Source of the DNA: Clostridioides phage LIBA6276
Direction: 5' to 3' (one strand)
Length of the DNA stretch: 64,000 nucleotides
Sequence record: MF547662.1
A model generated the notes under the pieces. The model ran no database searches. It saw nothing but the letters and a program-made list of their open reading frames with translations, and was not told the origin of the DNA. A program made the position numbers and the translations under genes. The first letter of the stretch is position 1. Every line of letters starts with the position of its first letter. This document shows positions 4,878 to 31,473 of the stretch, in pieces.

Positions 4878-4910
4878 CTATTCTGGTATATATTTAAGGA
4901 GGTGTTACAA

Positions 4911-5195: not shown

Positions 5196-5201
5196 AAAAG
5201 T

Positions 5202-5380: not shown

Positions 5381-5582
5381 AAATTCACCTCCTTATAAAA
5401 AAATAAAGCGAGGCTCACCTCCTTCCTTTGAAGAAGTAGGCTAAATACAGAAACAACCACTCTTAGCACTTTCGATTTAAAATTCCTTACTATACTAGAT
5501 TATACCATAATTTTACAATTAATAAAATATTTTAGCTCATCTTAATTGATGGGCTTTTCTAATACAAAGAAGGTGATAAAAT

Positions 5583-7298: not shown

Positions 7299-7299
7299 A

Positions 7300-9228: not shown

Positions 9229-9229
9229 T

Positions 9230-9385
9230 ATGGAAGTAAATTTACAAAAAGCATATACAGTAGCATTTGAAGAGATAAAAAGTTTATATAATGAACTAAT
9301 ACTTTATAAAGCACTTAACATGCAACAACAAGAAGAAATTGAGAACTTGAAAAAAGAACTAGAAGAACAAAATAAAGAACAATAG
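9230..9385 (+). CDS. small coiled-coil protein, 51 aa (MEVNLQKAYTVAFEEIKSLYNELILYKALNMQQQEEIENLKKELEEQNKEQ)
   Basis: AGGAGGA RBS 8 nt upstream; below the ORF-track cutoff. Confidence 0.4.
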   Translation: MEVNLQKAYTVAFEEIKSLYNELILYKALNMQQQEEIENLKKELEEQNKEQ

Positions 9386-9396
9386 GATGTGATACT

Positions 9397-11472: not shown

Positions 11473-11488
11473 ATAGAGGTGGAAAAAC

Positions 11489-16372: not shown

Positions 16373-16385
16373 AAGGGATTAAATT

Positions 16386-16712
16386 ATGAACGTAAATATA
16401 AATGAAGAAAAAATTGAAAAGCTTAAGCAGAAAAAGAAAATAAGTAATTTAAATATAAGTCAAAAAACGCAAGATAATGACATTACAGATTTAATGTTAG
16501 CAACTGCTGAAATATGTGAAATGGTATTAAGTAGTCAACAGACATCTACTATGTCATTAAGAAATATAAAATTAAATGAAGGAGGAAGTAGTATGGCAGC
16601 AATTTATGTGGGATTGATAGAGAGAGGTTTAAAAACAATTGACCAAGTACCTGTAAAATACAGAGAAGAAGTAAGAAAAATGTGTGAAGCATTAGAGATT
16701 TCATTATCATAG
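16386..16712 (+). CDS. hypothetical phage protein, possibly XkdX-like
   Basis: C-terminal AAIYVGLIERGLKTIDQVPVKYREEV resembles the XkdX motif (weak). Confidence 0.3.
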   Translation: MNVNINEEKIEKLKQKKKISNLNISQKTQDNDITDLMLATAEICEMVLSSQQTSTMSLRNIKLNEGGSSMAAIYVGLIERGLKTIDQVPVKYREEVRKMCEALEISLS

Positions 16713-16790
16713 AATTGTAAGAGTTCTTTTTTTATGTTCAAAATAGAGAGTTACTAATGTAGCTCTCTAACTTAAAAAGAAGGTGATAAA

Positions 16791-17120
16791 TTGTTAAATG
16801 AAGAGGTAGTAAAAAAATTAAAGAATGTACCTAGCGACACTAATAATGCAATAGAAACTGCTAAAACAGAGATTAACAACAAAATAGGTGATACAACACA
16901 ACTTACTACAACAGATAAAACAAATATAGTTAGTGCATTAAATGAGGTAAAAACTAGCGTAGATAGCATAGAAACAACAGCAGAGAAAACAAGTTATAAT
17001 AATGCAACAAGTAATCTTACTGCTACAAATGTTCAAGGGGCGATTGATGAAGTTGTTAGAAAAATAGAAAATTTTAATGAGGTTAATATATCTATACAAA
17101 ATGATATGTTACCTATTTAA
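16791..17120 (+). CDS. hypothetical phage structural protein
   Basis: TTG start after AAGAAGGTGATAAA; T/S/N-rich. Confidence 0.3.
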   Translation: MLNEEVVKKLKNVPSDTNNAIETAKTEINNKIGDTTQLTTTDKTNIVSALNEVKTSVDSIETTAEKTSYNNATSNLTATNVQGAIDEVVRKIENFNEVNISIQNDMLPI

Positions 17121-17136
17121 GATAGGAGAGTGAAAA

Positions 17137-18852
17137 ATGGCTATAGTTTATGAATTTAATTATACAGGTGCTGAACAAAGTGTAGTGTTGCCACCTGGTA
17201 AATATAAGTTTGAATGTTTTGGTGCTTGTGGTGGTAATTATTATGATTTTGTACAGTGTGCAAAAGGTGGCTATACTGCTGGTTCTTTAATATTGAAAGA
17301 AAATACTACATTACATGTTTACGTTGGGCAAAGTGGTTATTGTAAAGGTGTTAATGGTATTGAGACTTGTAGAAGTGGTTTTAATGGTGCGGGTGGTATA
17401 ACCACTTATAAAAGTACTTCTGATGGTTATTATAGTCTTGCAGGTGGTGGAGCTACTGATATTAGACTTATTGGTGGTAACTGGGATAATTTACAAAGTT
17501 TGCTATCTCGCATAATTGTTGCAGGTGGTGGTGGTGGTGGAAGCGGAAATTCACATGATAGTATTGGTCATGGTGGTGGTACAAAAGGTAAAGATGGTAT
17601 TTCTATAGCAAATAAATATTTTGCAGGCGGTGGAAGCCAATTTCAAGGCGGTTTAACTTTTAATAGTCTTTATAATGGTTCTTTTGGTGTAAGCGGTGCT
17701 GGAGATGGCATTAGTGGTGTTGGTGGCGGTGGTGGTTGGTATTGTGGTGCAGGTAGTTTTTATGCTGAATTTGGTGGTGGTGGAAGTGGATATATTCTAA
17801 CAAAAGATAGTTATAAGCCAGCAAATTATAGTCCATCTTCTAAATATTATTTTAGCGATATAAATAGCGTTGTAGGTGGAAATACTACGAAACAAGATGG
17901 TTATGCTAAAATAACATTACTCCAAGCATTACCTTTTTTAACTATATCCTCTTATAATTCCACTACAGCTACATTTAAAGCTGACCACACAGACCCTACA
18001 TTGCTTACAAAAATAGAATATTTTATAGATGATGTACTAAAAGAAACTATAACAACAGATTTAACAACAGAGAAAATAATTAACTATACATTAGAAGATA
18101 ATACACTACACACACTTAAGATAGTTGTCACAGACAGCGCTAATGCTACAGCAGAAAAAGTTGTAAGTATAAGCAAAGGAATTGCACCTCTTCCTGCTGG
18201 TTCTACAACAGATGAAGTTACAAGTAAATGGATAGAAATTAAAGATGCATTTAAAAGTGGCAAAACAAGTATTATAAACACTTTAGCATTAAAGAATATA
18301 GAAGCAAGTTTAAATAATACGCTAGTTGAATTATCAGAGAAAATAAAAACAAGTTTTGACAGTTCTGACGCTAGTGTGCAGGATTTGATGAACCAGTTAA
18401 CACAAGCTAATAACACTATAAGTCAGTTAAATTCTAAATATAAATATGCCAGTGGTACTATTGATGTTGTTAAAAATAGTTCTTTAATGGCTAATTTATA
18501 TGGAGAGTCCTTTGGTAGACAACCTGGTACTTGGCTTAAGATTGATAATTTAGGTTTTATTCCTAATATTTTTGTTGCTGAATGCCAATATGTTACTTCT
18601 AATAATTATTTTTTTAAACATATTGTTATTGCTACTTGTAATATAAATTGGTTTTGGGATAAAAAAGATTTTTCAGCTAGAATTGTATTTACTAAAGAAA
18701 AAAATTCTAATCAAGATTTTAGTGGAAGTGGAATTATTTATTCAAATAATGAGTGTGATGTATATATAAATAATAAAGGCATTAATGTTCCTGCAAGTAG
18801 TCCTAATGTTTCTAGTTACCTACATTCTTGGCATGCTATAAAATTTATATAA
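17137..18852 (+). CDS. glycine-rich tail fibre protein
   Basis: 571 aa with long GGGGG(S)G runs in the N-terminal half; common in clostridial phage fibre proteins. Confidence 0.5.
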   Translation: MAIVYEFNYTGAEQSVVLPPGKYKFECFGACGGNYYDFVQCAKGGYTAGSLILKENTTLHVYVGQSGYCKGVNGIETCRSGFNGAGGITTYKSTSDGYYSLAGGGATDIRLIGGNWDNLQSLLSRIIVAGGGGGGSGNSHDSIGHGGGTKGKDGISIANKYFAGGGSQFQGGLTFNSLYNGSFGVSGAGDGISGVGGGGGWYCGAGSFYAEFGGGGSGYILTKDSYKPANYSPSSKYYFSDINSVVGGNTTKQDGYAKITLLQALPFLTISSYNSTTATFKADHTDPTLLTKIEYFIDDVLKETITTDLTTEKIINYTLEDNTLHTLKIVVTDSANATAEKVVSISKGIAPLPAGSTTDEVTSKWIEIKDAFKSGKTSIINTLALKNIEASLNNTLVELSEKIKTSFDSSDASVQDLMNQLTQANNTISQLNSKYKYASGTIDVVKNSSLMANLYGESFGRQPGTWLKIDNLGFIPNIFVAECQYVTSNNYFFKHIVIATCNINWFWDKKDFSARIVFTKEKNSNQDFSGSGIIYSNNECDVYINNKGINVPASSPNVSSYLHSWHAIKFI

Positions 18853-18865
18853 ATGAGGTGATAAA

Positions 18866-19159
18866 ATGAATAGAGCAAATAGAATTATATGTGACCAAAC
18901 CGGGAAAATATTACTCCAAACTGGAGAAGCAACAGGGGATATATTAGAACATGATGAAATAACGGAATTACATTTTGTTGATATTCCGTATGGAAGTGTA
19001 GATTATACTAAAAGCAGAATTGTAAGCATAAATATAGAAACAAAAGAACCTATCTTAGAAGAAATACCAGTATTTGTTTCAGAAGAAGAAAAGAGAATAC
19101 AAGAGTTAGAAAATCAATTACTAATTGCAGAAAATGAAAAAGTAGGAGGAATTTTATAA
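18866..19159 (+). CDS. hypothetical protein
   Basis: ORF with GAGGTGATAAA RBS. Confidence 0.35.
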   Translation: MNRANRIICDQTGKILLQTGEATGDILEHDEITELHFVDIPYGSVDYTKSRIVSINIETKEPILEEIPVFVSEEEKRIQELENQLLIAENEKVGGIL

Positions 19160-19341
19160 TGAATATAAATAATGTTGTAGTAAGAATATTAGCAGAGAGA
19201 ATATTAAACGGAGGGTTAAACCCATTGAAAAATAGAGAATTTCAGTTAGATGACGTGACTAACATAGGGTACAGAAAAGCAGTAGAGGATTATATTATAG
19301 AGCATAGTGGAGTAGTCGAAGAAGCAGAACCAATTGTATAG
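19159..19341 (+). CDS. hypothetical small protein
   Basis: ATGA-coupled to the upstream ORF. Confidence 0.3.
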   Translation: MNINNVVVRILAERILNGGLNPLKNREFQLDDVTNIGYRKAVEDYIIEHSGVVEEAEPIV

Positions 19342-19466
19342 AAGGTTCTTTTTTAGATTATTTAATAAAAACATATTAAAATCATAATTTTAATTAGAAA
19401 TTTAGTGAATAAGAGCCTTGTTTTATAGGCTCTTTTTATATTAATTATTTAAAAGGAGTGGTAATT

Positions 19467-20282
19467 TTGAATATAAAAACATTAACAATTCATGCAGGAC
19501 ACAACCCAGATGGTAAAGTAGGTTCTGGAGCAGTAGGAAATATAAAAGAATCTACAGAAGCAAGAAATGTACTAAAAGAGTTAATACCTTTATCTCAAAA
19601 GGAATGTAAAGTTTATGATTGTACATGTAACAATGGAACTTCTCAGAGTGATATATTGAATAAGATTATAGATAAATGTAATTCATATAACACAGATTTA
19701 AATGTAAGTATCCATTTCAACAGTGGTGGTGGTCGAGGAGTAGAAGTTTTAGTGTATAATTTAAATGACAAAGAAACTGTTGAAATAGCATCAAGAATAT
19801 GTAAAAAAATAACTGAAACTTATCATGCAAAAGGTGATAAAGATTTTAAAAATCGTGGAGTTAAAGAAAAGAAAACTCTAGCATTTTTAAGAAGAACGAA
19901 GGCAAAGTCAATTTTAGTCGAGTGCTGCTTTGTAGACACATCTGATACTAAAAAATATAATGCTAAAGATATGGCCATAGACATTTACGAAGGAATATTT
20001 AATAAGTCTGTAGCTGGTAAACCACAAGATAACAAAGTGAAATACGCAATAGTTTATGAAGGTGAAGTAGATAAAGTTATAGCCCAATTAATGGCCATGA
20101 ATTATAAATCTAATGAAGTCTCTATATGTGAGTTGAAAAATTATGTTCCTGGACATTGTGAAAACCTATATGTGATTGGTAGAGCATCCAGTAAAATTAA
20201 AACTAGCGAGAGATTCACTAAGTTACAAGGTGATGATAGATGGGCTACACTTCATAAAGTGTTAGATTTTATAGGCAAGTAG
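19467..20282 (+). CDS. endolysin, N-acetylmuramoyl-L-alanine amidase (Amidase_3), CD27L-like
   Basis: TIHAGHNPDG...GSGAVGN and VSIHFNSGGGRGVEVLVYN amidase_3 motifs; C-terminal IVYEGEVDK...NYVPGHCENLYVIGR...GDDRWATLHKVLDFIGK resembles the CD27L C-terminus as I recall it; start revised to the TTG at 19467 (RBS AAGGAGTG). Confidence 0.8.
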   Translation: MNIKTLTIHAGHNPDGKVGSGAVGNIKESTEARNVLKELIPLSQKECKVYDCTCNNGTSQSDILNKIIDKCNSYNTDLNVSIHFNSGGGRGVEVLVYNLNDKETVEIASRICKKITETYHAKGDKDFKNRGVKEKKTLAFLRRTKAKSILVECCFVDTSDTKKYNAKDMAIDIYEGIFNKSVAGKPQDNKVKYAIVYEGEVDKVIAQLMAMNYKSNEVSICELKNYVPGHCENLYVIGRASSKIKTSERFTKLQGDDRWATLHKVLDFIGK

Positions 20283-20293
20283 GAGGTAATGAA

Positions 20294-20911
20294 TTGAATA
20301 TATTAGATAAATCAACAGCTACATTAGAACAAGTCTTTTCGTATTTAGACACATTAAAAAATAACTCTAATCCACCACATTTTTTATGCAGAGCTATAGT
20401 ACCAATTATATATAAAGAAGCAGAGAAAAAAGGTGTAAATCCAGTTATTGCAATTGCTCAAGCATTTGTAGAAACTGGATATTTTAATTTTGGTAGAGTT
20501 TTAAATCCTTCTTATTGCAATGTGTGTGGTCTTAAAGGAAATAAAGGTGGAGGAGATTTAGACCCAACAGCTCATACAAGATTTAATTGTTGGGAGGATG
20601 GAGTATCAGCATTTATTGACCATCTAGCATTATATGCTGGAGCTAAGGGATATCCAAAATATAGTGAATTAGTTGGTAAAGTTGAATATAAAGTAAATGG
20701 AACTACATTAGACCCTAGACATTTTCCATATTTACATGGAGAAGCTAAAACAGTAGAAAGTTTATCAGGCAAATGGTGTCCAGATATGAATTATGGCCAA
20801 AACATAATAAATATATGTAATAAGATAAGTTCAATGAAGGTAGAAAACAATGATGTAAAATTAGAGCAAATAAAAACTAAAGTAAAAGAATTAAATGAGA
20901 TTCTTGGATAG
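20294..20911 (+). CDS. glucosaminidase-domain (Lyz2-like) cell-wall hydrolase
   Basis: NPVIAIAQAFVETGYFNFG matches the glucosaminidase AQAxLESGwG motif. Confidence 0.5.
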   Translation: MNILDKSTATLEQVFSYLDTLKNNSNPPHFLCRAIVPIIYKEAEKKGVNPVIAIAQAFVETGYFNFGRVLNPSYCNVCGLKGNKGGGDLDPTAHTRFNCWEDGVSAFIDHLALYAGAKGYPKYSELVGKVEYKVNGTTLDPRHFPYLHGEAKTVESLSGKWCPDMNYGQNIINICNKISSMKVENNDVKLEQIKTKVKELNEILG

Positions 20912-20922
20912 GAGGAAATCAC

Positions 20923-21174
20923 ATGGATATAATGCAATTTATACCTGAAAATTTAATAATGTTAATAGGTGGGCTTTACATATTAGGAACATTTATAAAA
21001 GAATCTAATATTAAAAATAAATACATACCTTTTATATTGTTAGTTATAGCAATGATAAGCAGTTGTTTGTTTATGAAAGAGCTGTCAATAGAAGCTGTTT
21101 TTGAAGGTATTTTATGTTGGGGAGCATCTATAGGAATAAATCAAATACAAGTACAAAACAGAAAGGAAAAGTAG
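20923..21174 (+). CDS. holin (two predicted TM segments)
   Basis: 83 aa, hydrophobic, in the lysis cassette; GGAGGAAATCAC RBS. Confidence 0.55.
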   Translation: MDIMQFIPENLIMLIGGLYILGTFIKESNIKNKYIPFILLVIAMISSCLFMKELSIEAVFEGILCWGASIGINQIQVQNRKEK

Positions 21175-21486
21175 ATGTTATCTAAAGAAATGATTGAATT
21201 ATTAAGCCAATATGGATATACAGCCATACTACTTACAGTAGTAATGTTATGGTTTGGCAGATATTTAGAAAAGAATAGACAACTAGAGCAGGATGATAGA
21301 AAAAAAGAAAGAGCTTATTTTTCAAGAGAAATTAAAGAGCAGAGAACTTTATTTGGTAATACAATAGATAAGTTTGATGATAAATTAGATAAATTTGCTG
21401 AAGCATTAAATACTAATAACAGTAGACTTGAAAGAGTTGAAACAGACATAACAAAAATTAAAGATAAATTAGAGACTAGAGATTAA
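21175..21486 (+). CDS. BhlA/UviB-like holin-like protein
   Basis: N-terminal TM helix then a charged coiled-coil tail; ATG overlaps the upstream stop. Confidence 0.4.
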   Translation: MLSKEMIELLSQYGYTAILLTVVMLWFGRYLEKNRQLEQDDRKKERAYFSREIKEQRTLFGNTIDKFDDKLDKFAEALNTNNSRLERVETDITKIKDKLETRD

Positions 21487-21520
21487 TTTCTCTAGTCTTT
21501 TTTATAAGGAAGTGAAGTAT

Positions 21521-22456
21521 TTGGCAAAACAACGCAGTAAAAGAATAAGCATAAATGGAGAACTAAATCCAGAGAATATTAAATTATGGAAGCAATACAA
21601 AAGAGCAAAACAAATAGCTGGGAAAAGTGAAAAAACAATATATAATTATGAATGTGATATAATGCAATTTTTTAAGTTTTTAAATATAGAATGTTTTGAT
21701 GCATTACTAACTGATATAAATGAAGAAGAAATAGAAGCTTATATAGGTTATTGTATGGAACATGGAAATAATGAAAAAAGAATTAGACGTAGAATAAGTT
21801 CAATTTCATCATTACTATCCTTTTTAAAGAAGAAGAGGAAAATTACTGACAACTGGTGTGAAATGATAGAAAGACCAGGAACAGGCGAAGAAGTTCAGAA
21901 AAGAACTTTTTTAACTGAAGAACAGTTAAGCAAATTAAAAGAAAAGCTTTCAGAGCAAGACAATTTACAGTTAGAAGTTTATATAAATTTAGGATTGGCT
22001 ACAATGGCTAGAAGTAATGAGATAAGTCAATTTAGATGGGACAATATAGATTTAGATAATAGATGGATTCATGGTATTACAGCCAAAGGTGGAGTTTCAA
22101 GAGATTTTAGATTTTCAGAAGAAGTCCAGCATCTATTAATAGAATGGAAGGATTATCTATCTCAAAATAATATAGATTATCCGTATATATTCTTTACAAG
22201 ATATGGAGGCAAATACAATCAAGTCAATTCAAATGTCTTAAGTTCATGGGTTAAAAAAGCTTTCAGGTTAATTGGTATAGAAGGTGGATATAATCATGAC
22301 CTTAGACATAGTATGTCTAATCTTTTAAAAGACAGAGGAGTTCCAATAACTACAGTTTCAAAATTGCTTGGCCACAGTGGGGTTGATGTAACTATAAATC
22401 ACTACACAATAGAAAATAAAAATAAATTAGCTGAGGAATATGATAAGTTTATGTAA
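21521..22456 (+). CDS. tyrosine site-specific recombinase (XerD-like)
   Basis: ARSNEISQFRWDNID ... HDLRHSMSNLL...LGHSGVDVTINHYT (R..HxxR..Y catalytic signature); start moved to the in-frame TTG at 21521 for RBS spacing. Confidence 0.75.
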   Translation: MAKQRSKRISINGELNPENIKLWKQYKRAKQIAGKSEKTIYNYECDIMQFFKFLNIECFDALLTDINEEEIEAYIGYCMEHGNNEKRIRRRISSISSLLSFLKKKRKITDNWCEMIERPGTGEEVQKRTFLTEEQLSKLKEKLSEQDNLQLEVYINLGLATMARSNEISQFRWDNIDLDNRWIHGITAKGGVSRDFRFSEEVQHLLIEWKDYLSQNNIDYPYIFFTRYGGKYNQVNSNVLSSWVKKAFRLIGIEGGYNHDLRHSMSNLLKDRGVPITTVSKLLGHSGVDVTINHYTIENKNKLAEEYDKFM

Positions 22457-22475
22457 ATTGAAAGGAGGTGGTATC

Positions 22476-22517
22476 ATGGCATGTAAAGGTCGTAAAAAAG
22501 GTAAGAAAAAGAGATAG
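22476..22517 (+). CDS. 13-aa highly basic peptide (MACKGRKKGKKKR)
   Basis: perfect AAAGGAGGTG RBS 5 nt upstream and a terminator immediately downstream. Confidence 0.2.
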   Translation: MACKGRKKGKKKR

Positions 22518-22527
22518 ATAAATAATA

Positions 22528-22582
22528 AAGCCCTTTAAGGATTACTCTTAAATGAGTTTTCTTTAAAGGGCTTTATTTTTTT
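22528..22582 (+). terminator. rho-independent terminator after the recombinase operon
   Basis: aagccctttaa...ttaaagggctt stem followed by tattttttt. Confidence 0.5.
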
Positions 22583-22615
22583 GTCTAAAATAGCTTCTTA
22601 TTAAATATATACATA

Positions 22616-22686
22616 CTTATATAACATATTTTTAATAATATTATATGTTATATAAGTATATTTTTGACATGTATAACATATCATTA
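22616..22686. promoter_or_regulatory. operator/promoter region of the XRE regulator
   Basis: perfect 14-bp inverted repeat cttatataacatat-N13-atatgttatataag; a third half-site tataacatat sits inside the TTGACA(22664)-17-spacer of a putative promoter. Confidence 0.45.
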
Positions 22687-22717
22687 AGATAAATAAACTA
22701 ATATAATCTAATAAGGA

Positions 22718-23080
22718 ATGATAAAAATGTTAGAAGAAGATGAAATATATAATGTAATTGGTAAAAGAATAAGAAATTATAGAAGAAAAGCAGGGTATAA
22801 TCAAAATACATTAGCAAAAAAGACTGGTTTATTTCCTGCTTATATTGGTCAAATTGAAAGAGGTGAAAGTAAAGCATCACTTCGTTCAATTTTTAAAATT
22901 GCAAATGCATTAGAGATACCTTTAGAAGTTTTATTTGAAAATATTATACAGAATGAAAATGATGTTGAAACTCTTTCGTCTGAAGCTTATGAGTTAATTG
23001 ATAGTTTAACAGTAAAAGAACAAAAAGCGATAATTAGATTGATAAAAGAAATAATTGAATATCGAAAATTTGAAGAATAA
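22718..23080 (+). CDS. XRE-family helix-turn-helix transcriptional regulator (repressor-like)
   Basis: NQNTLAKKTGLFPAYIGQIERGESKASLRSIFKIANAL HTH_3 signature. Confidence 0.7.
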   Translation: MIKMLEEDEIYNVIGKRIRNYRRKAGYNQNTLAKKTGLFPAYIGQIERGESKASLRSIFKIANALEIPLEVLFENIIQNENDVETLSSEAYELIDSLTVKEQKAIIRLIKEIIEYRKFEE

Positions 23081-23091
23081 AAATTTAATAA

Positions 23092-23128
23092 AGAAGATGT
23101 CTTAAGATTGAGACATCTTCTTTTACTT
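23092..23128 (+). terminator. terminator of the XRE gene
   Basis: gaagatgtct-taagattg-agacatcttc followed by ttttacttt; another cttataacatat operator half-site follows at 23143-23154. Confidence 0.5.
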
Positions 23129-23217
23129 TATGTTAATATATACTTATAACATATATTTTATTATTTTAATGTCTATATATGTTGATATTTTAATTGCAGA
23201 AAGGAATGTACATATCC

Positions 23218-23538
23218 ATGCAAAAAATACCACAAGCTGAATTAAAAGTTATGAAATTCATATGGAATAAGAATGATATAGTAACATCAAAAGAAGTTAT
23301 GGAAGCTATGGAATTAGAATATAACTGGAAGGCGACAACTACACTAACTCTTCTTTCAAGACTCACTATTAAACGTTTTTTAGATTCTGAGAGGATAAAA
23401 AGAATTACACATTATACAATACTTATTACAAAAGAAGAATATAAAATATTTGAAACAAAGAGATTTTTAGAAGAAGTACATTCTAATTCTATAGAAAGCT
23501 TAATTAGTTCTTTAGAGGATTGTTATAAGAATAAATAA
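23218..23538 (+). CDS. BlaI/MecI/CopY-family winged-helix transcriptional repressor, orphan
   Basis: MQKIPQAELKVMKFIWNK...VTSKEVMEAM matches the BlaI N-terminus; start revised to the ATG at 23218 (RBS AAAGGAATG). Confidence 0.5.
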   Translation: MQKIPQAELKVMKFIWNKNDIVTSKEVMEAMELEYNWKATTTLTLLSRLTIKRFLDSERIKRITHYTILITKEEYKIFETKRFLEEVHSNSIESLISSLEDCYKNK

Positions 23539-23630
23539 AGAAGTGAACTTTTATTATATACAAAAAGTTTTCGTAACGATATAATTAATACAATTTATTC
23601 TTATATATATAATAAAATATACATAGAGAG

Positions 23631-23659
23631 TTGACAACTAAAATAATATACACTATCAT
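23631..23659 (+). promoter_or_regulatory. promoter TTGACA-17-TATCAT for the CWB2 gene
   Basis: hexamers read from the sequence. Confidence 0.4.
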
Positions 23660-23692
23660 TCATAGTATAAAAGGATGGGAGGATTTTACAAT

Positions 23693-24955
23693 ATGAAATT
23701 CAAAAGAAAAGCATTAACCTTAGCTATAATATCTTCTATTGTCATGTCTAGCACATTATTAGTTTCAGCTAAAGAACTAAAATTTAGACCTCCAGCTCAT
23801 AGAATACAAGGAGCAAATAAGTATGAAACAGCAGGTTTAATAGCAGACAGAAGAAAATACACCCAAGCAATAATTATAAACACAGATAAAAGTCTTGCAG
23901 ATGGGTTGAGTGCTAGTGGTTTAGCTGGAGCTTCTAACTCGCCAATATTACTTGCTAAACAAAATTCTATACCAAATTCTACTCTTAAAAGATTAGATAA
24001 ATTTAAAAAAATCTATTTAATAGGTGGAGTTAATTCTATAAGCAAAAATGTAGAAAATATACTAAAAAACAAAAAAATAAAGGTTATTAGGATAGAAGGA
24101 AAAGACAGAATAGACACAAGTTATAATGTTGCAAAAGAAATACGCAATCTAAAAAAGGTTGATGAAGTATATCTTACAAATGCTTACCAAGGAGAGGCTG
24201 ATTCTATAAGTATATCTCCAGTTGCTGCTAAATATAAAAATCCAGTTGTATTAACAAATGGAAAGAATATACCATTTAAAACAGATGGGGTAAAAACATA
24301 TGCTATTGGAGGAACAGCATCAATAAACGACTCTTTAGTGAACAGTACAAAAGCAACTAGAATTGGTGGTGTTGATAGACTTGACACTAATGAAAAAATA
24401 ATTAAGCATTTTTATAAAGATGAATTAAAACATCCAAATCAAATATGTATTGTAAGTTCTGATAATTTAATAGATGCACTATTATCTTCTACAATACACA
24501 AAGAATATCCTGTATTTTTAGTAAATGAAACTAATGACAAATCATTAGTTACTAGTGCTAATTTCCCAATAATAATAGGTGATATAAAAAATGAAATTTT
24601 AGACCAATGCTTAACTCCAGATTATATGTTAACTGGTAATACTAAAAGAAGTGACATCTCAAAAGCTTTAGATGCTATATATAAAGCAAAAGGTTCAAAA
24701 GCACATGAATATTGTTATACATATAATTATGGTAACTCAAGATATAAAAAAGCTGAAAATATAGATTTTCCACACTATGAGTTTGAAATAATCAGTGTTA
24801 AAAATGTTAAACAAGATGAATCTAGCACTGATGGTTCTGATACTTATACTGATAAAGAAGATAGCATTAAAACAGTAGGAACTCTAATTGTAAATTCTGA
24901 AACATTAGAAGTATATGAGTATAGTTTTGATACACAAAAGTTAACTAAAATATAA
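23693..24955 (+). CDS. secreted cell-wall-binding protein with three CWB2 repeats (Cwp-like)
   Basis: signal peptide MKFKRKALTLAIISSIVMSSTLLVSA; three CWB2-type repeats (ETAGLIAD...ADGLSASGLAG; IYLIGGVNSIS; YAIGGTASIND); start at the second ATG (23693), 10 nt after GGGAGG. Confidence 0.7.
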   Translation: MKFKRKALTLAIISSIVMSSTLLVSAKELKFRPPAHRIQGANKYETAGLIADRRKYTQAIIINTDKSLADGLSASGLAGASNSPILLAKQNSIPNSTLKRLDKFKKIYLIGGVNSISKNVENILKNKKIKVIRIEGKDRIDTSYNVAKEIRNLKKVDEVYLTNAYQGEADSISISPVAAKYKNPVVLTNGKNIPFKTDGVKTYAIGGTASINDSLVNSTKATRIGGVDRLDTNEKIIKHFYKDELKHPNQICIVSSDNLIDALLSSTIHKEYPVFLVNETNDKSLVTSANFPIIIGDIKNEILDQCLTPDYMLTGNTKRSDISKALDAIYKAKGSKAHEYCYTYNYGNSRYKKAENIDFPHYEFEIISVKNVKQDESSTDGSDTYTDKEDSIKTVGTLIVNSETLEVYEYSFDTQKLTKI

Positions 24956-24967
24956 TCAATTATAAAA

Positions 24968-25008
24968 TAAGGCTCTTTAGTTAATATTGAAAAGAGTCTT
25001 ATTTTTGT
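24968..25008 (+). terminator. rho-independent terminator after the CWB2 gene
   Basis: aggctcttt-N11-aaagagtct followed by tatttttg. Confidence 0.5.
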
Positions 25009-25222
25009 ATGTTAGAGTTGATTAAAGAAATTATATTAAAATTAAAATTTCAATTATTCTTTAAATTCCCATTTAAGGAATAGTATATATAAAACATAGA
25101 ACTTATTAAAAGTACTCTCTTTCATAGTATGTAATTAAAAATAAGTTATTTTGTACATTATGATTTCTTATATTTAATGGTATAATAAGATTAAATATAA
25201 GAATGTTGAAAGGAATGATATT

Positions 25223-25444
25223 ATGAAATTGCCTGAATTAGAGATTAATATAAGTATATCAATACCAATTTTTTTAGTTATCTCTTATTTGGCTATAGTT
25301 TCTATAGTAATGCTAGGGATATCAGCTTTAAATAACTTTACTAATACAACATCAGTACCTATAAATGCTTTAGGTTCAACAGTTGGATTTGTTATATTTC
25401 AACTTTTAGTTAGTTTTTTTGAAAATAGAAAAATTACAGATTAA
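25223..25444 (+). CDS. small membrane protein, 73 aa
   Basis: two hydrophobic segments; tggtataat extended -10 at 25178-25186 and a GGAATGA RBS. Confidence 0.35.
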   Translation: MKLPELEINISISIPIFLVISYLAIVSIVMLGISALNNFTNTTSVPINALGSTVGFVIFQLLVSFFENRKITD

Positions 25445-25463
25445 ATGTTATTTACATGAAATT

Positions 25464-25494
25464 TTGTTTTAATATTCTTAATTTGTGGTATAAT
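25464..25494 (+). promoter_or_regulatory. promoter TTGTTT-19-(TG)gTATAAT for antisense RNA 4
   Basis: same architecture as the promoters at 3825 and 5168. Confidence 0.4.
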
Positions 25495-25500
25495 AAAAGC

Positions 25501-25622
25501 AAGGAAACATATTTTACTTAACTTTGAGTGATGTTTCCAAACTAAATTAGTTTATTTGGATTTTCTTTGGAACTTAATATTAAGTTCCCAGCCACTCTTA
25601 GTCGCGTTTGAGTGGCTTTTTA
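25501..25622 (+). ncRNA. candidate type I antitoxin antisense RNA 4
   Basis: promoter and terminator present; overlaps the toxin-4 3' end (25552-25622). Confidence 0.45.
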
Positions 25623-25683
25623 ATTTATCGTAGATATAACTAGCTATAACACCAGCTATAATACTCATCATTAGATTTTCCAT
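25552..25683 (-). CDS. small hydrophobic toxin-like protein, 43 aa (MENLMMSIIAGVIASYIYDKLKSHSNATKSGWELNIKFQRKSK)
   Basis: AAAGGAGGTG RBS 8 nt upstream of the ATG at 25683; paralogue of the 5264-5380 ORF. Confidence 0.55.
   Translation of the reverse strand: MENLMMSIIAGVIASYIYDKLKSHSNATKSGWELNIKFQRKSK
25590..25622 (+). terminator. rho-independent terminator (agccactc-N12-gagtggct ttttt)
   Basis: seen in sequence; homologous to the 5274-5307 terminator. Confidence 0.6.
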
Positions 25684-25865
25684 AGTTTTTCACCTCCTTT
25701 CATAAGAAAGTGAGGAAATTTCTATGGAAACACCACTCACAGCTTTTTCAAATATTTATTCCTTGCTATGTTTATTATATCATAAATATTGGAAATATAA
25801 AATTTTAATATTTTCTAAAATCTGACGCTTTAAACGCCATTCTAAGGCTTTATAAAAATTTACCT

Positions 25866-27710
25866 TTATATTTGTACCTTTGTTTTTTTATCATACAAAT
25901 TATATATTGGATATAATTTAAATTTATTCAATAATTCTTTACTCATATTATTCATATTATTTTTAGCTTCTTCATACTTTTCAATTAATATATTTATCGC
26001 ACATTGAATCATTATGTCTTTTGAGTTTTTTCTTTTAATATTATCTAAATCAAGTATTTCATCAATGCTAAAATTTCTAATCCTTTTTATTATTTGATAT
26101 TTATTAATTTTGTTTATATCTACATCAACTTCATTTTCTATCCATTCTAATAACTCTAGTGCCTCAATTAAATATTCTTTAATAAGTATTTTATCATAGT
26201 ATTTAATTAATTCTAAAATATATGACATGACTCTATCTGTATACTCTGGTGTTTTTTTATATTTTTTAATATTTATAGTTGCTTTACTTACATCGAAATT
26301 AATACTATCCATATCATTATAATTTAAAAGTATATATGGACTGCATTGCATGTCTCCTTCTCTTTGAGTAATAGTAAGGTTATTTTTTTTATCAAAAATA
26401 TTAATAAGATTCCAACTATTATCTGTTTCTATCTTATATAAGATTATTTTCTTTTCATTAATTTTCATATATGCAAATCCTGAATGTTTACTCATATTCT
26501 TTTTTTTAATTGTTTTATTATTAATAAATATACTTATAAGTGTATTTATCTTCCCATAATCTTCCTGAGACATATTATCTAATAAGAAATTTTCTTGTTT
26601 TATTTCAAGCATCTCTAATAGATTCTTAAAATCTTCAAAAAATAATATATTTTCTATTAAATCATTTTCTTCGCATGGCATAGTTTTTAAATCTAAATCA
26701 ATAAGTTTATCTTTTGTTGAAAATTCTTTTATAAGTACTTTTTTATGTTTAAATATATCTAATAACATCTTTAAATTATTTAAATGACTATCAACAGTTC
26801 CACTTGGTTCTTTTATCGTAAAATTTATATCAATAGACTTATTGATTAATTTCTCATCTAATATACGGTAAATATAAATAACAATAAAATTATTGATAGT
26901 TATTTTGTGATTGGTTTTATTTACTGTTGATATATATTCATTATTTTTATAAATATTATTTTTTATAAAAATATCTACAATAGTTTTTGTATTTAATTCT
27001 TTAAGATACAATTTATTCACACAAGGTAAATCAATTGTATCTAAATCTTCATGTTTAAGTGGTTTGTAAGCATACACACTTCTATTAAATAAATCATATC
27101 TATTATCTATTTCTGCAATATCTATTGAAATCTCTTTGTCTCTTTCACTTAGTTCTATTTGTTTATCTACTAAATTTTTTGTTTGTTTATTTATATTACG
27201 ATAAAACGAATTAACTATTCTTTCAAAATGATTATTTTCAGGTCTTAGTTCATATAGCTCTACAGACTTGGTCAATTGATTTTTCTTCGTTCTATCTATT
27301 TCATTTAATATATTTATCAAATCAACTGGAAGTAAATTTCTATAATAAACTTTTATTTTGTTAACACTTTTAATTTCAACAACAAATAAAATAACACCTT
27401 CATTATTGTAGTAGTTTCTTAAATCACTAACATCCATTGAAAAAGTTCTTTTTTTGCCACTTAACTTTTTTACCTCCTTTGCTTTAAGTTGTATATTTAT
27501 TTTTCTTAATAAATTTTCTTTTTTATTATCTAAACAATTTTCCTTCTCAATTTTATTTTTTTCATATAAAAATAGTTCTCCGTCCCAAGATGGTGTTTTG
27601 TCATTTGATTGAATATTTGCTTCAATATTTCCCGCAATCGCACATAATTTTTGAATCTCAGCAATAGATAAATTTTCCTTGTGTATATTTGAAATCTTAC
27701 TTGTTCCCAT
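25866..27710 (-). CDS. large hypothetical protein, 614 aa; orphan and lysine-rich; possible phage-defence or abortive-infection candidate
   Basis: strong RBS AAAGGAGGTGGC; no recognisable catalytic motif; sits between the integrase and a TA module. Confidence 0.5.
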   Translation of the reverse strand: MGTSKISNIHKENLSIAEIQKLCAIAGNIEANIQSNDKTPSWDGELFLYEKNKIEKENCLDNKKENLLRKINIQLKAKEVKKLSGKKRTFSMDVSDLRNYYNNEGVILFVVEIKSVNKIKVYYRNLLPVDLINILNEIDRTKKNQLTKSVELYELRPENNHFERIVNSFYRNINKQTKNLVDKQIELSERDKEISIDIAEIDNRYDLFNRSVYAYKPLKHEDLDTIDLPCVNKLYLKELNTKTIVDIFIKNNIYKNNEYISTVNKTNHKITINNFIVIYIYRILDEKLINKSIDINFTIKEPSGTVDSHLNNLKMLLDIFKHKKVLIKEFSTKDKLIDLDLKTMPCEENDLIENILFFEDFKNLLEMLEIKQENFLLDNMSQEDYGKINTLISIFINNKTIKKKNMSKHSGFAYMKINEKKIILYKIETDNSWNLINIFDKKNNLTITQREGDMQCSPYILLNYNDMDSINFDVSKATINIKKYKKTPEYTDRVMSYILELIKYYDKILIKEYLIEALELLEWIENEVDVDINKINKYQIIKRIRNFSIDEILDLDNIKRKNSKDIMIQCAINILIEKYEEAKNNMNNMSKELLNKFKLYPIYNLYDKKTKVQI

Positions 27711-27754
27711 AGAATATAGCCACCTCCTTTGATAACCTATTATATATTATACCA

Positions 27755-28867
27755 TTAATTAGCTTTGAATAAATTTTCAGATATTCTATCTGAAGCTTCT
27801 TTATCCATTTCTTTAAGTACATGAGAATATACATTAAGAGTAGTATTAATATTTGAATGTCCCACCCTTTCAGATATAACCTTTATAGGTACTTTAGAAT
27901 TTATAAGTAAAGTAACATGTGAATGTCTTAAGTCATGAAATCTAATATGAGGTAAATCATTGTTCTCTAAGAATTTTCTAAATTTCTTACTCATTACATC
28001 TTCAGCAATTGGATTCCCTTTTCTATCAAAAAATAGTAAGTTATATTCATTTCTAACAATACTTCTCAATAACTTCTTATTCTGCTCCAGCCTATAATTT
28101 TTTAGTAAATTCATAAGCTCTATTGGTGCAAATATTTTTCTAACAGAGCTTTCTGTCTTTGGCTCTTTAAGTATAACAGAACCATCTAATCTACTAGTTA
28201 TCTTATTTACTGTTATTGTATTTTCATCAAAATCAATATTATCCCAAGTTAATCCCAAAACTTCTGAAAGTCTTAATCCTAGACCTATAGCTAAACTAAT
28301 AGGAAGCTCCATATTAGTTCCTTTAGCTAACTCTAATAATTTTAACATTTGTTCTTTATCATAAATTTCATTTTTAAATTTTTTAATTCTTGGACTTTCT
28401 ATACCATCTATAATATTTTCTTTTATTAACTTAATTCTATACGCTCTCTTTATTGCAAGTCTCAATACATTTATATGTACTTTAATAGTTTGAGGGTTTA
28501 AGTTACCAGCTAAATCATCTACATAATTCTGTATATGAATATTTCTCAACTCTTGAAGACGATATTTTCCAATAGAAGGATTAATATGATTTTTACAAAT
28601 AGCAATGTAACTTTTATATGTAGATGCCGAAATATTATCTTTATATTTTTCAAGAAAGTCTAATATAAATCCAGCTAGAGTGATTTCATTTGGAACAAGA
28701 AAACTATCTTTATATATACTGTCCTTAACTTCAGCCAATCTTTTATTAGCATCTCTCTTTTTATCAAAAGCTCCCATATTCTTTTGTTTTCTTTTTCCTG
28801 ATTCATCATCTCTAAATTCTAAGTACACTACATAATTTTTATTTCTTTTTCTTATAAAAGCGTTCAT
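27755..28867 (-). CDS. int: phage integrase, tyrosine recombinase
   Basis: GLRLSEVLGLTWDNID ... HDLRHSHVTLL...VGHSNINTTLNVYSHV catalytic signature; 370 aa with an N-terminal SAM-like domain. Confidence 0.85.
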   Translation of the reverse strand: MNAFIRKRNKNYVVYLEFRDDESGKRKQKNMGAFDKKRDANKRLAEVKDSIYKDSFLVPNEITLAGFILDFLEKYKDNISASTYKSYIAICKNHINPSIGKYRLQELRNIHIQNYVDDLAGNLNPQTIKVHINVLRLAIKRAYRIKLIKENIIDGIESPRIKKFKNEIYDKEQMLKLLELAKGTNMELPISLAIGLGLRLSEVLGLTWDNIDFDENTITVNKITSRLDGSVILKEPKTESSVRKIFAPIELMNLLKNYRLEQNKKLLRSIVRNEYNLLFFDRKGNPIAEDVMSKKFRKFLENNDLPHIRFHDLRHSHVTLLINSKVPIKVISERVGHSNINTTLNVYSHVLKEMDKEASDRISENLFKAN

Positions 28868-29006
28868 GGTTATCCCTCCTATGAAAATTCATATACTTAT
28901 TATACCATACAGAGGAGGCAAAAAATAGTCATTTTAGCTGACTTTCAACTGACTTTTTTAATTCTTTTATTTATATAATTATTGAAATTACTTAGTTGTA
29001 AAGAAA

Positions 29007-29037
29007 TAAGACATAGAATACACAATTCTATGTCTTA
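29007..29037. repeat. perfect 13-bp inverted repeat (taagacatagaat-acaca-attctatgtctta) upstream of int
   Basis: seen in sequence; nearby direct repeats ctgacttt (x2) and aatcgaattt (x2). Confidence 0.5.
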
Positions 29038-29317
29038 TACTAGTAATTTATTTATTTTTTATATTTTGCGTTTTAAGCAATCGAATTTCTGAATAGGACT
29101 AATTATAAGCATTGATTTTTATAAAGCCTTAAAATCGAATTTAGAAGGTCATTTCGTTTTGATAAGTTTTAAATTCTAATTAAGTATTAGGATAATTAGA
29201 TAGTAAAGAGTTAATCTGGAATTTATTATATAAAACAACTTTAATAGTGGAAAATATAACTTTAAATGTGGTATAATATTTTATATAATAAATTATAAAA
29301 AGGAGGTTGATATATCT

Positions 29318-30160
29318 ATGAAACTTGATTTTAAACCAACAAAAGTACCTGAAATTGAAATACAGGATGCAGCAGGTATAAATTATCTAAACAGAATAGG
29401 TACAAAAAATAGTGATACTCATTATAAGATTACTAAAAATAGAGTTACTTTTAGAGTAAAAAAAGAAGATATATTTGTTAAATTTTTAGATAATGGTAAA
29501 AAAGAACTGAATGAAAAATATTACTTATATATCGAATATTTAAAAGAGACTATTTTAAAAGAAGAAGTTGAATCTTTTGAAATAGGATTTGAAAAAGCTA
29601 ATATTTGGGCTGATAAGCACTTAAGTGACTTTGAATATTTAAATTCATTAATTTGGGATATTAAAGAAAAGAGACAATCCAAAATATTAGAAGAAGAAAA
29701 TGTTGACACCCTAGAGAAGGCTAAAACTGTTAAATTTCCTTGTTTCTCAAAATACTCAGGTGAATATATATATGATGTAATGCAAACTGATTTAGAGCAT
29801 TGTGTTGCATATTATGCAGGAAATTTAAACAGTAAAGAATTTAACTTTTCAAGTGTTGGTGTTAATCAGTTAAATTACAATCCATCATCAGAAAGAACTA
29901 AAAGTTATAATTGCATAAAATATTTATTAGATACATTTTATCCTCATATATCAAAAAATTTATTAGCTTATTTTAAAGATATAAGTCTTGATGATGCAAA
30001 AAAAATTATTTTTACAAGTGGAAAATACAAAGGTAAAACAGCATATGATGTTTATAAAGAAAATAGAAGTTATTTAGAATGGTATTTACAAAATACAAAA
30101 AAAACTATATATAATATTAGAATGATAACAGCTATTAATCTAATTAAAGAATGTGAATAA
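29318..30160 (+). CDS. hypothetical protein with two tandem GKYKG/Y..W motifs
   Basis: FSKYSGEYIYDVMQTDLEHCVAYY and FTSGKYKGKTAYDVYKENRSYLEWYL repeats; promoter tggtataat at 29263. Confidence 0.4.
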   Translation: MKLDFKPTKVPEIEIQDAAGINYLNRIGTKNSDTHYKITKNRVTFRVKKEDIFVKFLDNGKKELNEKYYLYIEYLKETILKEEVESFEIGFEKANIWADKHLSDFEYLNSLIWDIKEKRQSKILEEENVDTLEKAKTVKFPCFSKYSGEYIYDVMQTDLEHCVAYYAGNLNSKEFNFSSVGVNQLNYNPSSERTKSYNCIKYLLDTFYPHISKNLLAYFKDISLDDAKKIIFTSGKYKGKTAYDVYKENRSYLEWYLQNTKKTIYNIRMITAINLIKECE

Positions 30161-30162
30161 AA

Positions 30163-31473
30163 ATGGATGTATTAAATTTACCAGATTTTGAAGTTATTGA
30201 TACAATAATAAATGAACACGATATGACTGTAATTGTTAAACCTAAAAAAGAACCCACCATATGTTATGAATGTGGTTGCACTGAATATTATAAGCATGGA
30301 AAGTCTACACGTTCTGTTAAGGATTTAAATATTTTTGACAAACATGTAGTAATAGAAATACATAGTTATAGATATAAATGTAAACATTGTAATTCTACAT
30401 TCAATCAAAAATATAAAAGCATTGATGAAAGAGGTAAAATTACTATTAGATTAAGAAAACAGATAGAAAAAGAATCTCTTAAGAAACCATTTTCCAGTAT
30501 TGCAGATGAATATAGTGTTTCACCAACCACAGTAAAAAGAATGTTTGAAGTTTATATGAAGGAACTTGAAAAAAATATAGTTTACACTACCCCAATAGTG
30601 TTGAGTATAAATGGACTATATCTTAAGAACTCAGTAAGAGCTATATATATAGATGTAGTCCATCATAAAATTCTTGATATTCAAGCAACTAGAAATAAAA
30701 CTGATATCAAAGCATTTTTAAATAAATTTCCTAATAAAAAACAAATCGAAGTCATAATAATTGATATGTGCAAACATTGTAAAGAAGCAATTTATGAGGA
30801 ATTACCAAAGGTAAAAATTATTATAGATAGATTTCATGTTTTACAATTAATTACAAATGCCCTAGAAAAAGAAAGAAAGTCTTTTAAAGATACTTTAACA
30901 ATTAAGCAACGCAAAAAACTATTAAAAGATAAAATTTTACTATCAAAAAATAGAGAGGAATTAAAAGATGAACAAATACAGAATATGCAAACGATATTCA
31001 ATGAATTTCCACATTTAAAATTAGTATATGAGCTTAAGGAACAATTTAGAGATATTTATGGATGTCAAAATAAAGAAGATGCTTTTAAAATATATGAGAA
31101 ATGGAAATTGTCAGTTCCTAAAAATATGAAATATTACCAAGAGGTGATAAAAACAGTTGATAGTTGGTACTTAGAGATATTTAACTATTTTGGATATAGA
31201 ACAGCAAATACTTCTACTGAAAGCGTAAATAATTTAATTAAATATATTGAAAAAGCTGGAAAAGGTTATAGATTTGAAATTTTTAGAGCTAAGATATTAT
31301 TTGAAACAATAGCAACTAATAAACCTAAATATAACAAATTAACCTCAACTAAAATTGTAAATACCATCAAGTCTTTTAGTTGGGATGATTCATATAATAA
31401 AGAAAAATTAATAGAGGGATTCGGAGTTAATATTCCACAATTACTTGAAGTTTTCAAAAGTGATAGATTTTAA
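30163..31473 (+). mobile_element. ISL3-family transposase gene (IS ends not identified)
   Basis: N-terminal C-x2-C...C-x2-C zinc finger, a VSPTTVKR HTH, and PKVKIIIDRFHVLQL, which is very close to the ISL3 consensus as I recall it (PKAKIVIDRFHIVQL); TESVNNLIKYIEKAGKGYR tail. Confidence 0.7.

Follow-up and report, generated by a model that had tools for sequence, protein, structure and literature searches.

What is encoded where two short transcription units converge and overlap within a 43-codon reading frame of Clostridioides phage LIBA6276? This question concerns positions 25464–25810 of a 64,000-nucleotide (nt) stretch of the phage (MF547662.1), the whole of which is called the window here. 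The locus had been predicted to be the fourth toxin–antitoxin (TA)-like module of the element, a paralogue of module 3, and is referred to as module 4. A complete convergent toxin/antisense-RNA cassette was found, spanning 25465–25801, and all elements named in the prediction were located at or close to the positions given for them. With a probability of about 85%, it is a type I TA module of the C. difficile 'CD_typeI_toxin/RCd-antitoxin' family, carried on a phiCD211-like phage-plasmid. The cassette is an unannotated new member of an experimentally characterised family (Maikova 2018; Peltier 2020); as this family was known before, the locus is not new in kind and has little intrinsic novelty.

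The toxin open reading frame (ORF; 25552–25683, minus strand) encodes the 43-amino acid (aa) peptide MENLMMSIIAGVIASYIYDKLKSHSNATKSGWELNIKFQRKSK, which has a hydrophobic N-terminal segment and a Lys-rich tail. Its ribosome-binding site (RBS), AGGAGGTG, lies 9 nt upstream of the ATG, in agreement with the original prediction. The Kyte–Doolittle maximum is 1.92 (15-residue window) at residues 4–18, the C-terminal part holds seven K+R against two D+E, and the net charge is +4. The peptide matches the NCBIfam model NF047374 'CD_typeI_toxin' with 55.1 bits (E 7.3e-15), residues 1–41 aligning with profile positions 1–50 of 51. PHROG 738 matches the toxins of both modules 3 and 4 (E 5e-16 for module 4), and a family hidden Markov model (HMM) made here recovers the module 4 toxin with an E value of 2e-28. 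When the 605 small ORFs of the window were searched by HMM, the toxins of modules 3 and 4 were the only clear members. A tblastn search found relatives in 51 records of C. difficile phages, among them phiCD38-2 gp33. Pfam has no match for either toxin or for the neighbouring 73-aa and 614-aa ORFs. A holin identity was rejected (PHROG 1299, E only 0.15), and so was a 61-aa 'longer ORF' (P0002), an upstream extension running through the Shine–Dalgarno (SD) sequence. The peptide strings gave no match in a full-text literature search, and the supplements of PMC7699646 do not mention phiCD211, LIBA or the peptide sequence.

Module 4 is paralogous to module 3, as had been claimed. The module 3 cassette occupies 5185–5491 and encodes the 38-aa peptide METVVFNICLNIATSLIACYIYDKAKNHSDANKSGFKR (ORF 5264–5380, minus strand). 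The core YIYDK-x-K-x-HS-x-A-x-KSG is common to the two ORFs exactly as first described, and the toxins are 53% identical. The cassettes align throughout (5130–5520 with 25440–25830) over about 390 nt at 74% column identity, and the alignment takes in both promoters, the SD, the terminator arms and a conserved ACCACTC of the leader. The 21-mer TGTGGTATAATAAAAGYAAGG occurs in the 64-kb window only at 5185 and 25484, against 0.01 occurrences expected by chance. These results support the reading of the locus as a toxin/antisense-RNA cassette with a paralogue on the same element.

The convergent antisense arrangement was borne out at the sequence level, with a promoter, a terminator and an RNA fold. 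The antitoxin promoter (25465–25494, plus strand) carries the motif TGTGGTATAAT, in which the −10 element lies at 25489–25494 and the extended TG at 25486–25487 (TGgTATAAT, 25486–25494); a TGTTT box at 25465–25469 stands 16 nt before TGGTATA. A TTGTTT…TGgTATAAT promoter had been placed at 25464–25494, of which the −10 element stands and the −35 is doubtful: TTGTTT (25464–25469) is 19 nt from the −10, too far for the sigma-70 scan, and is not called by it. This upstream box would be more in keeping with the GTTT box of a SigB-type promoter, and the pattern TGTTT-N16-TGGTATA then overlaps the extended −10. Homologous promoters have been assigned to P-SigA/P-SigB, and extended −10 and SigB promoters are hard to distinguish (PMC7438776). 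The antitoxin promoter is invariant in six orthologues, and the arrangement TGTGGTATAAT-N3-AGCAAG recurs downstream of toxin genes across the family.

The predicted antitoxin RNA is about 120 nt long (~25501–25622, plus strand), covers the 3' half of the toxin mRNA and is perfectly complementary to its last ~24 codons and 3' untranslated region (UTR). Its fold (−37 kcal/mol, z = −6.0) consists of stem-loop (SL) 1 at 25503–25538, the complement of which is the toxin terminator hairpin, SL2 at 25542–25559, SL3, a palindrome, at 25569–25588, and a terminator hairpin at 25590–25617 followed by a U-tract (AGCCACTC-N12-GAGTGGCT). This intrinsic terminator (25590–25621) lies inside the toxin ORF, as predicted, within codons 23–32 (KSHS...KSGW). 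Its arms occupy 25590–25597 and 25610–25617 and are followed by TTTT; one such structure was found against 0.1 expected. The palindrome, the 5' hairpin of the antisense RNA and the toxin promoter had been missed in the original prediction.

Membership of the family is also indicated by the antitoxin RNA. A covariance model (R1) was built from seven antitoxin regions of other subfamilies only, namely the 49-, 50- and 53-aa types with the gp33 type among these, and with no orthologue of the locus. With filters off, R1 matched the module 4 antitoxin at 25498–25623 (plus strand) with 59.6 bits (E 1.5e-10, 1.2 kb searched). Under default filters, over the whole window, it gave 30 bits for module 3 and, unexpectedly, 36 bits for module 2, and missed the AT-rich module 4 match. 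A covariance model of all subfamilies was set aside, as MAFFT misaligned the terminator of the short variants. Over the whole window, Rfam gave no match that reached the gathering thresholds; at E ≤ 1 on 25400–25850, the sole match was a chance one to CRISPR-DR41, and Rfam 15 has no family for RCd9/RCd10-type antitoxin RNAs.

The toxin promoter (25801→25774, minus strand) is strong and reads TTTATA-16-TATAAT with an extended TG (TTTATA-16-TGATATAAT; 10 of 12 matches plus TG in the promoter scan). The transcription start site was set 7 nt after the −10 element in every locus. In module 4, this rule places the toxin start near 25767; the leader then measures 84 nt, the toxin mRNA about 270 nt (~25767→25497), and the antitoxin runs ~25501→25621. 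The toxin mRNA ends in a terminator hairpin, GGAAACAU...AUGUUUCC followed by UUGCUUUU. In CD0956.2-type loci, the same rule returns the published leader of 83 nt and an antitoxin of ~137–139 nt, against published values of 134 nt by rapid amplification of cDNA ends and 125 nt by Northern blot. The published starts of CD0956.2 (1124042, plus strand) and RCd10 (1124339, minus strand) are 298 nt apart, which is the reported toxin mRNA length (PMC7438776). Therefore, the toxin mRNA reaches the antitoxin +1. The predicted transcript ends thus reproduce the values published for homologues (83-nt leader, 134-nt antitoxin, 298-nt spacing), which supports family membership.

The toxin mRNA folds at −96.3 kcal/mol (z = −11.3). 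In the minimum free energy (MFE) structure, the SD is held in a hairpin at 25689–25718 (minus strand), where GGAGG (25697→25693) pairs with an upstream anti-SD CCUC (25715–25712), and the AUG pairs with 25728–25722. The SD is likewise paired in the MFE structure of nearly all of the 35 family transcripts that were folded. Sequestration of the RBS has been stated for the homologues as 'data not shown' (PMC5961336). The toxin promoter, SD and start codon are invariant in the orthologues.

Some of the evidence weighs against assigning the locus to this family as a working module. The 55.1 bits of the toxin fall below the curated 60-bit NCBIfam equivalog cutoff, and the module 3 toxin reaches 30 bits. 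The hydrophobic stretch has only ~17–18 residues, seven fewer than in CD0956.2-type toxins. Frameshifted copies occur in some genomes (L024, P0013–P0015), and therefore not every copy is kept intact. Finally, the 34- and 35-aa sequences used for comparison are equated with the toxic CD0956.3 and CD0904.1 by length and context only. Because the score is below the NF047374 cutoff, the ORF is annotated as 'hypothetical' (LIBA2945_00053). The sub-cutoff score argues for a divergent subfamily and not for a lack of homology. Eighty viral-contig loci form a continuum of toxin lengths: 50–53 aa (MDNFLL...KSHSTRGKSKSGWELGFKIKFRKFK, the CD0956.2 type, also in phiC2), 43–46 aa (module 4 type), 38 aa (module 3 type) and 34–35 aa (MIGFLLSILAGVISAYIYDKIKNHPDANKGDLKK and MVINFLLSILAGVISAFMYEKIKNHSKANKSGLKK, with the lengths and prophage context of CD0956.3/CD2907.2 and CD0904.1). 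In the family alignment, the module 4 toxin joins the hydrophobic segment of the short forms to the KSGWELNIKF tail of the long forms.

The low score, the shortened segment and the frameshifted alleles could be taken to mean that the cassette is a decaying remnant, with an ORF too short or divergent to be toxic and a conservation that merely follows from the recent common descent of phiCD211-like phages, most orthologues being more than 83% identical in DNA. This explanation is improbable. Frameshifted alleles are common for TA loci, and the 34–35-aa toxins with the same short segment are reported as potent. Over the 22 N-terminal codons outside the antitoxin overlap, the ratio of nonsynonymous to synonymous change (pN/pS) is 0.07–0.6, and it stays below 1 against the most distant orthologues and the paralogues. 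The invariant SD, start codon and promoters also speak against decay, as do the compensatory changes that keep the terminator and the 5'–3' helix described below. In 13 diverse family sequences, all eight pairs of the terminator stem are kept and none is broken, with compensatory double changes at three pairs; the arms occur as AGCCACTC/GAGTGGCT, AACCACTC/GAGTGGTT and AATCACCC/GGGTGATT. In OX246691.1 (L110; C. difficile 'plasmid 2', 132,414 bp; toxin 5895–6029), −1/+1 indels turn SHSNAT into TTRSRKT, and the arms AACCACTC/GAGTGGTT are intact despite six to seven rewritten residues. This frameshift is a clear case of RNA structure constraining coding sequence. Because the stem is kept by compensatory changes and across the frameshift, the core K-x-HS...KSG is constrained twice, as protein and as antisense terminator.

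The full-length toxin mRNA is also predicted to pair end to end. In the MFE structure, its first 39 nt (25767–25729) pair with its last ~38 (25535–25498). The 5' arm (25729–25767, minus strand; AGCAAGGAA ... UGAGUGGUGUU) belongs to the toxin leader and the 3' arm (25498–25535, minus strand; AACAUCACUCA ... UUCCUUGCU) to the toxin 3' UTR. Four helices with ~30 bp in all make up the closure; their pair probabilities are close to 1.0, and the closure gains 25 kcal/mol over the best local-only fold (ΔΔG −25). It is predicted in all 35 distinct family transcripts, each with 28–40 end-to-end pairs, and the module 3 toxin mRNA has the same predicted closure with different arm sequences. RNAalifold recovers the helix from a MAFFT alignment of 19 joined 5' and 3' ends. 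In the closing helix, 94.5% of cells are paired, against 41–50% with slid partners, and 10 of the 21 pairs show compensatory changes. The covariation score is 0.347, against 0.05–0.09 in slid controls, and none of 500 shuffles scored as high.

The closing arms lie in an inverted repeat at the DNA level (25481–25548/25716–25787). Therefore, the toxin leader and the antitoxin 5' domain look alike, and both begin with AGCAAGGAA; from this we infer that they would compete for one 3' UTR site. Our tentative model, which folding and covariation do not raise to even odds, is that toxin mRNAs across the family, and those of modules 1 and 2, are closed into a circle by a covarying ~30-bp helix, with the antitoxin 5' domain as a leader mimic and a three-way competition for the 3' UTR site. 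Leader bound to the 3' UTR would give a closed, stable and silent mRNA; antitoxin bound there would free the leader and lead to decay. If true, the closure would explain the long half-life of the toxin mRNA and its reported reliance on RNase J/Y over RNase III. The model has points against it: the evidence for the long-distance pairing is confined to thermodynamics and comparison, local hairpins could be trapped as the RNA folds during transcription, and an inverted DNA repeat evolving in concert could mimic covariation. No description of the 5'–3' interaction was found in the two primary papers on the family (PMC5961336, PMC7699646) or in a review of it, and it may be described elsewhere. If anything here is new, it is the closure and the leader mimicry.

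The last of these objections can be extended to a full alternative, in which the 5'–3' complementarity is an inverted DNA duplication of the promoter and initial transcribed region, kept by gene conversion and of no consequence as an RNA helix, while the ends fold locally into a 5' stem and the 3' terminator. The arms of the repeat do include both promoters, the 3' arm must also form the toxin terminator and serve as template for antitoxin SL1, and recombinants with swapped 3' ends and weaker duplexes exist (L041 against L047). We regard this alternative as doubtful. The toxin leader has no comparable local hairpin: when long-range pairs are disallowed, its first 23 nt remain unpaired, at the above cost of 25 kcal/mol. 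Non-Watson–Crick positions in the helix are biased on the toxin strand (69 G.U against 7 A.C/C.A), and this G.U excess therefore favours selection on a toxin-sense RNA over a DNA repeat. Between distant subfamilies, cognate 5'/3' duplexes are stronger (−31 to −45 kcal/mol) than non-cognate ones (−13 to −30 kcal/mol). In addition, modules 1 and 2 have the same predicted closure with unrelated arm sequences.

Two further observations concern these RNA ends. GAGUGG (leader and coding sequence; 25732–25737, 25610–25615) and its complement CCACUC/CACUC (coding sequence and 3' UTR; 25592–25597, 25526–25530) are both present in two copies on the toxin mRNA. The nascent RNA could therefore pair in alternative ways, and hok-like refolding might be open to it. 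Among prophage contigs of IMG/VR, one 34-aa toxin and its leader are combined with either of two 3' UTR/antitoxin-5' regions (L041, L062 and L064 against L047, L058 and L049), one of them borrowed from the 35-aa (L026) type. The 5'–3' duplexes of the recombinants are weaker (−25 to −31.5 against −42 kcal/mol). Two 3' ends on one toxin suggest modular exchange between neighbouring cassettes.

What carries the cassette bears on its function. It had been assigned to a prophage region; the element is a phage-plasmid that persists as an episome, unlike an ordinary prophage, which is integrated. According to published work (PMC10778935), phiCD211-like phages are kept as extrachromosomal plasmids, and the same cassette is present in C. 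difficile 'plasmid' records of 127–136 kb, in line with an element of ~130 kb, and in two ~300-kb megaplasmids. The cassette DNA is 100% identical to that of Clostridioides phage LIBA2945 and 83–98% identical in AR1086-1, ES-S-0107-01, ES-S-0173-01, phiCDIF1296T, phiCD211 and pCD1602_4. The ORF is thus conserved in related phages: orthologues in eight phiCD211-like phages keep the ORF, both promoters and all hairpins, and in six orthologues the SD is conserved together with these promoters and hairpins. Beyond C. difficile, a promoter-pattern scan of genome contigs returned mostly chance promoter look-alikes in unrelated taxa and says little on taxonomic range. Toxin homologues appeared in it only with C. 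difficile loci and with contigs of a metagenome-assembled genome (MAG) named 'uncultured Veillonella sp.' (CAAFUD010000036.1 and CAAFUD010000081.1; L121, L134). These two contigs hold 53-, 35- and 34-aa C. difficile-type toxins and are probably C. difficile prophage DNA mis-binned into the Veillonella MAG.

In comparison with LIBA2945 (MF547663.1), positions 1–17546 of the window are identical (offset 150 nt) and 17685–29143 are 99.8% identical. Beyond 29.1 kb, the window is phiCD211-like, with a 280-aa exonuclease-like ORF and a 436-aa transposase at 29318–31473. This switch points to mosaicism among phiCD211-like phage-plasmids.

The cassette had been placed between the CWB2 gene and the 614-aa ORF, which holds in outline; a 73-aa ORF with two transmembrane segments (25223–25444, plus strand; PHROG 26516) lies between CWB2 and the cassette. 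Its stop lies 20 nt before the antitoxin promoter, in the same direction and with no terminator between. Read-through from it could give longer antitoxin isoforms, comparable with the 283-nt RCd9/RCd10 species reported for homologues. The 614-aa ORF (25866–27710, minus strand) belongs to PHROG 9827, a family of unknown function, and was matched by no Pfam, NCBIfam or PADLOC model. LIBA2945 carries this ORF; AR1086-1 and phiCD211 lack it and have the cassette directly beside the integrase. It looks like variable cargo inserted between the two. In phiCD211, a BlaI-type regulator replaces the 73-aa ORF and the cassette is intact. It can be concluded that the cassette is autonomous, because its neighbours vary.

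These variable neighbours also bear on the idea that the locus is a non-coding sense/antisense pair that regulates the 73-aa or the 614-aa ORF, its small ORF being untranslated. The distances would allow it, since the antitoxin promoter closely follows the co-directional 73-aa ORF with no terminator between, and the toxin promoter lies 60–90 nt from the stop of the 614-aa ORF. The idea is very improbable, as the cassette stays intact where either neighbour is replaced or missing, and the small ORF has a canonical SD and a protein sequence conserved throughout the family.

Which role, then, would a type I TA module have on such an episome? Four characterised homologous pairs were used as a guide (CD0956.2-RCd10, CD2907.1-RCd9, CD0904.1-RCd13 and CD0956.3-RCd14). 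Homologues are toxic, are neutralised by the antisense RNA, and stabilise plasmids and the phiCD630-1 prophage after excision (PMC5961336, PMC7699646). Published half-lives are 35 min for CD2907.1 mRNA and 13 min for RCd9. The homologous RNAs are described as starting with loop–loop kissing and going on to a full duplex that is cleaved by RNase III in vitro, and in vivo the toxin mRNA relies more on RNase J/Y. By analogy, the 43-aa peptide would insert into the membrane and arrest growth. Its full-length mRNA would be translationally silent through the hairpin that sequesters the SD and AUG and might also be closed by the ~30-bp pairing of 5' leader and 3' UTR, for whose 3' UTR site the leader-like antitoxin 5' domain would compete. 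The antisense RNA would begin with loop–loop contacts and proceed to a full duplex, causing decay or silencing of the toxin mRNA. The antitoxin would decay faster than the toxin mRNA; after loss of the episome, a cell would therefore run out of antitoxin and be killed or arrested, and the phage-plasmid would be stabilised. The most likely role is therefore episome stabilisation through post-segregational killing, which is the most economical one because the phage is episomal.

Both mobile-element stabilisation and abortive infection had been put forward earlier. Stabilisation is supported by homology (PMC5961336, PMC7699646); an abortive-infection role is possible and found no specific support, with no match to a defence-system model and no clustered regularly interspaced short palindromic repeat (CRISPR) array nearby. 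The same cassette could have been selected for phage exclusion, abortive infection or stress-induced dormancy, with infection or stress shutting off antitoxin synthesis and freeing the toxin, and sequence does not distinguish maintenance from phage exclusion, which limits the preferred role. For exclusion, it can be said that the cassette sits in an accessory or 'moron' region beside integrases, with a 614-aa ORF that is variably present in relatives, that the family is tied to SigB stress promoters and chromosomal CRISPR arrays, and that four cassettes on one element seem beyond the needs of maintenance. As a primary role it is nevertheless unlikely: PADLOC matched neither the toxin nor its neighbours, and experiments on the family have shown no phenotype other than stabilisation of plasmids and prophages. 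The same cassette could serve both roles. The C. difficile CRISPR repeat was not found in the window at up to three mismatches, and no tandem array lies near the cassette, so that a CRISPR association of module 4 was rejected. CRISPR adjacency is not required in the family, as the prophage members CD0904.1 and CD0977.1 show.

The original prediction counted four TA-like loci of two subfamilies on this element. Four cassettes are present; the division is less secure, and they probably belong to one superfamily, as R1 matches module 2 and the toxin HMM weakly matches module 1. Modules 1 and 2 (3894–4217 and 4424–4724, minus strand) have ORFs of 59 aa (3951–4130) and 53 aa (4491–4652). Their peptides belong to PHROG 5620 and have no NCBIfam match, and among phage records they are confined to phiCD211-like phages. 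Each has a strong promoter and a plus-strand terminator inside the 3' end of the ORF, encoding KNHP..SGDS. The predicted mRNA closure is AGAGACUACA.../...UGUAGUCUCU (z about −7.8). The module 2 antisense region matched R1 with the 36 bits given above (E 2e-4), and the module 1 toxin matched the toxin HMM weakly (E 0.006). Both modules probably represent a divergent branch of this superfamily that has not been described.

With these results, a 'hypothetical protein' encoded by a clinically common phage-plasmid of C. difficile can be recognised as part of an addiction module. They also indicate that an entire branch of the family, the 38–46-aa forms on phiCD211-like elements, escapes the NCBIfam cutoff. 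At least four cassettes on one 130-kb episome bear on the curing and engineering of these phages and on the use of the toxins as counter-selection markers. The predicted 5'–3' closure with leader imitation offers a testable mechanism by which a 3'-overlapping antisense RNA could control an RBS 200 nt away, a point left open in published work.

Among known systems, module 4 is most readily compared with CD0956.2-RCd10 and CD2907.1-RCd9 (PMC5961336). It resembles them in the toxin tail (N/S)HS...KSGWE(L/F)..IKF, in the antisense RNA (R1), in the 3'-overlapping convergent transcripts with a terminator inside the ORF and a TGTGGTATAAT promoter, and in a leader of ~83–84 nt with a sequestered SD. 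In contrast, its toxin has 43 aa and not the 53 of the CD0956.2 type, with seven residues missing from the hydrophobic segment, and it lies on a 130-kb phage-plasmid, whereas theirs lie on an integrated myovirus prophage. It also differs from the CRISPR-associated subset of Maikova 2018 in having no array next to it. With the short toxins of CD0904.1-RCd13 and CD0956.3-RCd14/CD2907.2-RCd15 (PMC7699646), it shares the short hydrophobic segment, the AYIYDK(I/L)KNH core and the phage location. The 37-residue tblastn matches in the phiCDHM13 and phiCD481-1 group are 59.5% identical. The short toxins stop right after the terminator-encoded KSG/KGD, whereas module 4 reads on into the WELNIKFQRKSK tail seen in the long variants and additionally has the SL3 palindrome; with its 38 aa, module 3 is closer to the short class. 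phiCD38-2 gp33 has been named a TA toxin and is carried with parA on an episomal phage (PMC7699646). It is 41% identical to the module 4 toxin, with a tblastn match exactly on gp33, and shares the context of episome maintenance, but it is a 50-aa long variant from a different phage group.

Outside the family, the closest analogues of the predicted closure are the fbi/tac pairing of hok and the 5'–3' interaction of aapA1. In hok/Sok of plasmid R1 and aapA1/IsoA1 of Helicobacter pylori, 5'–3' pairing locks the toxin mRNA in an inert and stable form with the SD sequestered. Module 4 would work in a similar way, as far as its in silico closure with a sequestered SD can tell. There is no sequence homology. 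The antisense RNAs of hok/Sok and aapA1/IsoA1 act on the 5' leader or initiation region, and 3' trimming activates the mRNA; that of module 4 spares the leader and spans the 3' half of the mRNA, in which the 3' arm of the closing helix lies. The txpA/RatA and bsrG/SR4 systems of Bacillus subtilis and par RNAI/RNAII of Enterococcus faecalis are likewise Gram-positive type I systems on prophage-like elements or plasmids, with 3'-overlapping convergent transcripts and a leader that hides the SD, again with no sequence homology. In par, the two 5' ends are mutually complementary owing to direct repeats. In module 4, inverted repeats make them alike, and they would therefore compete for one target.

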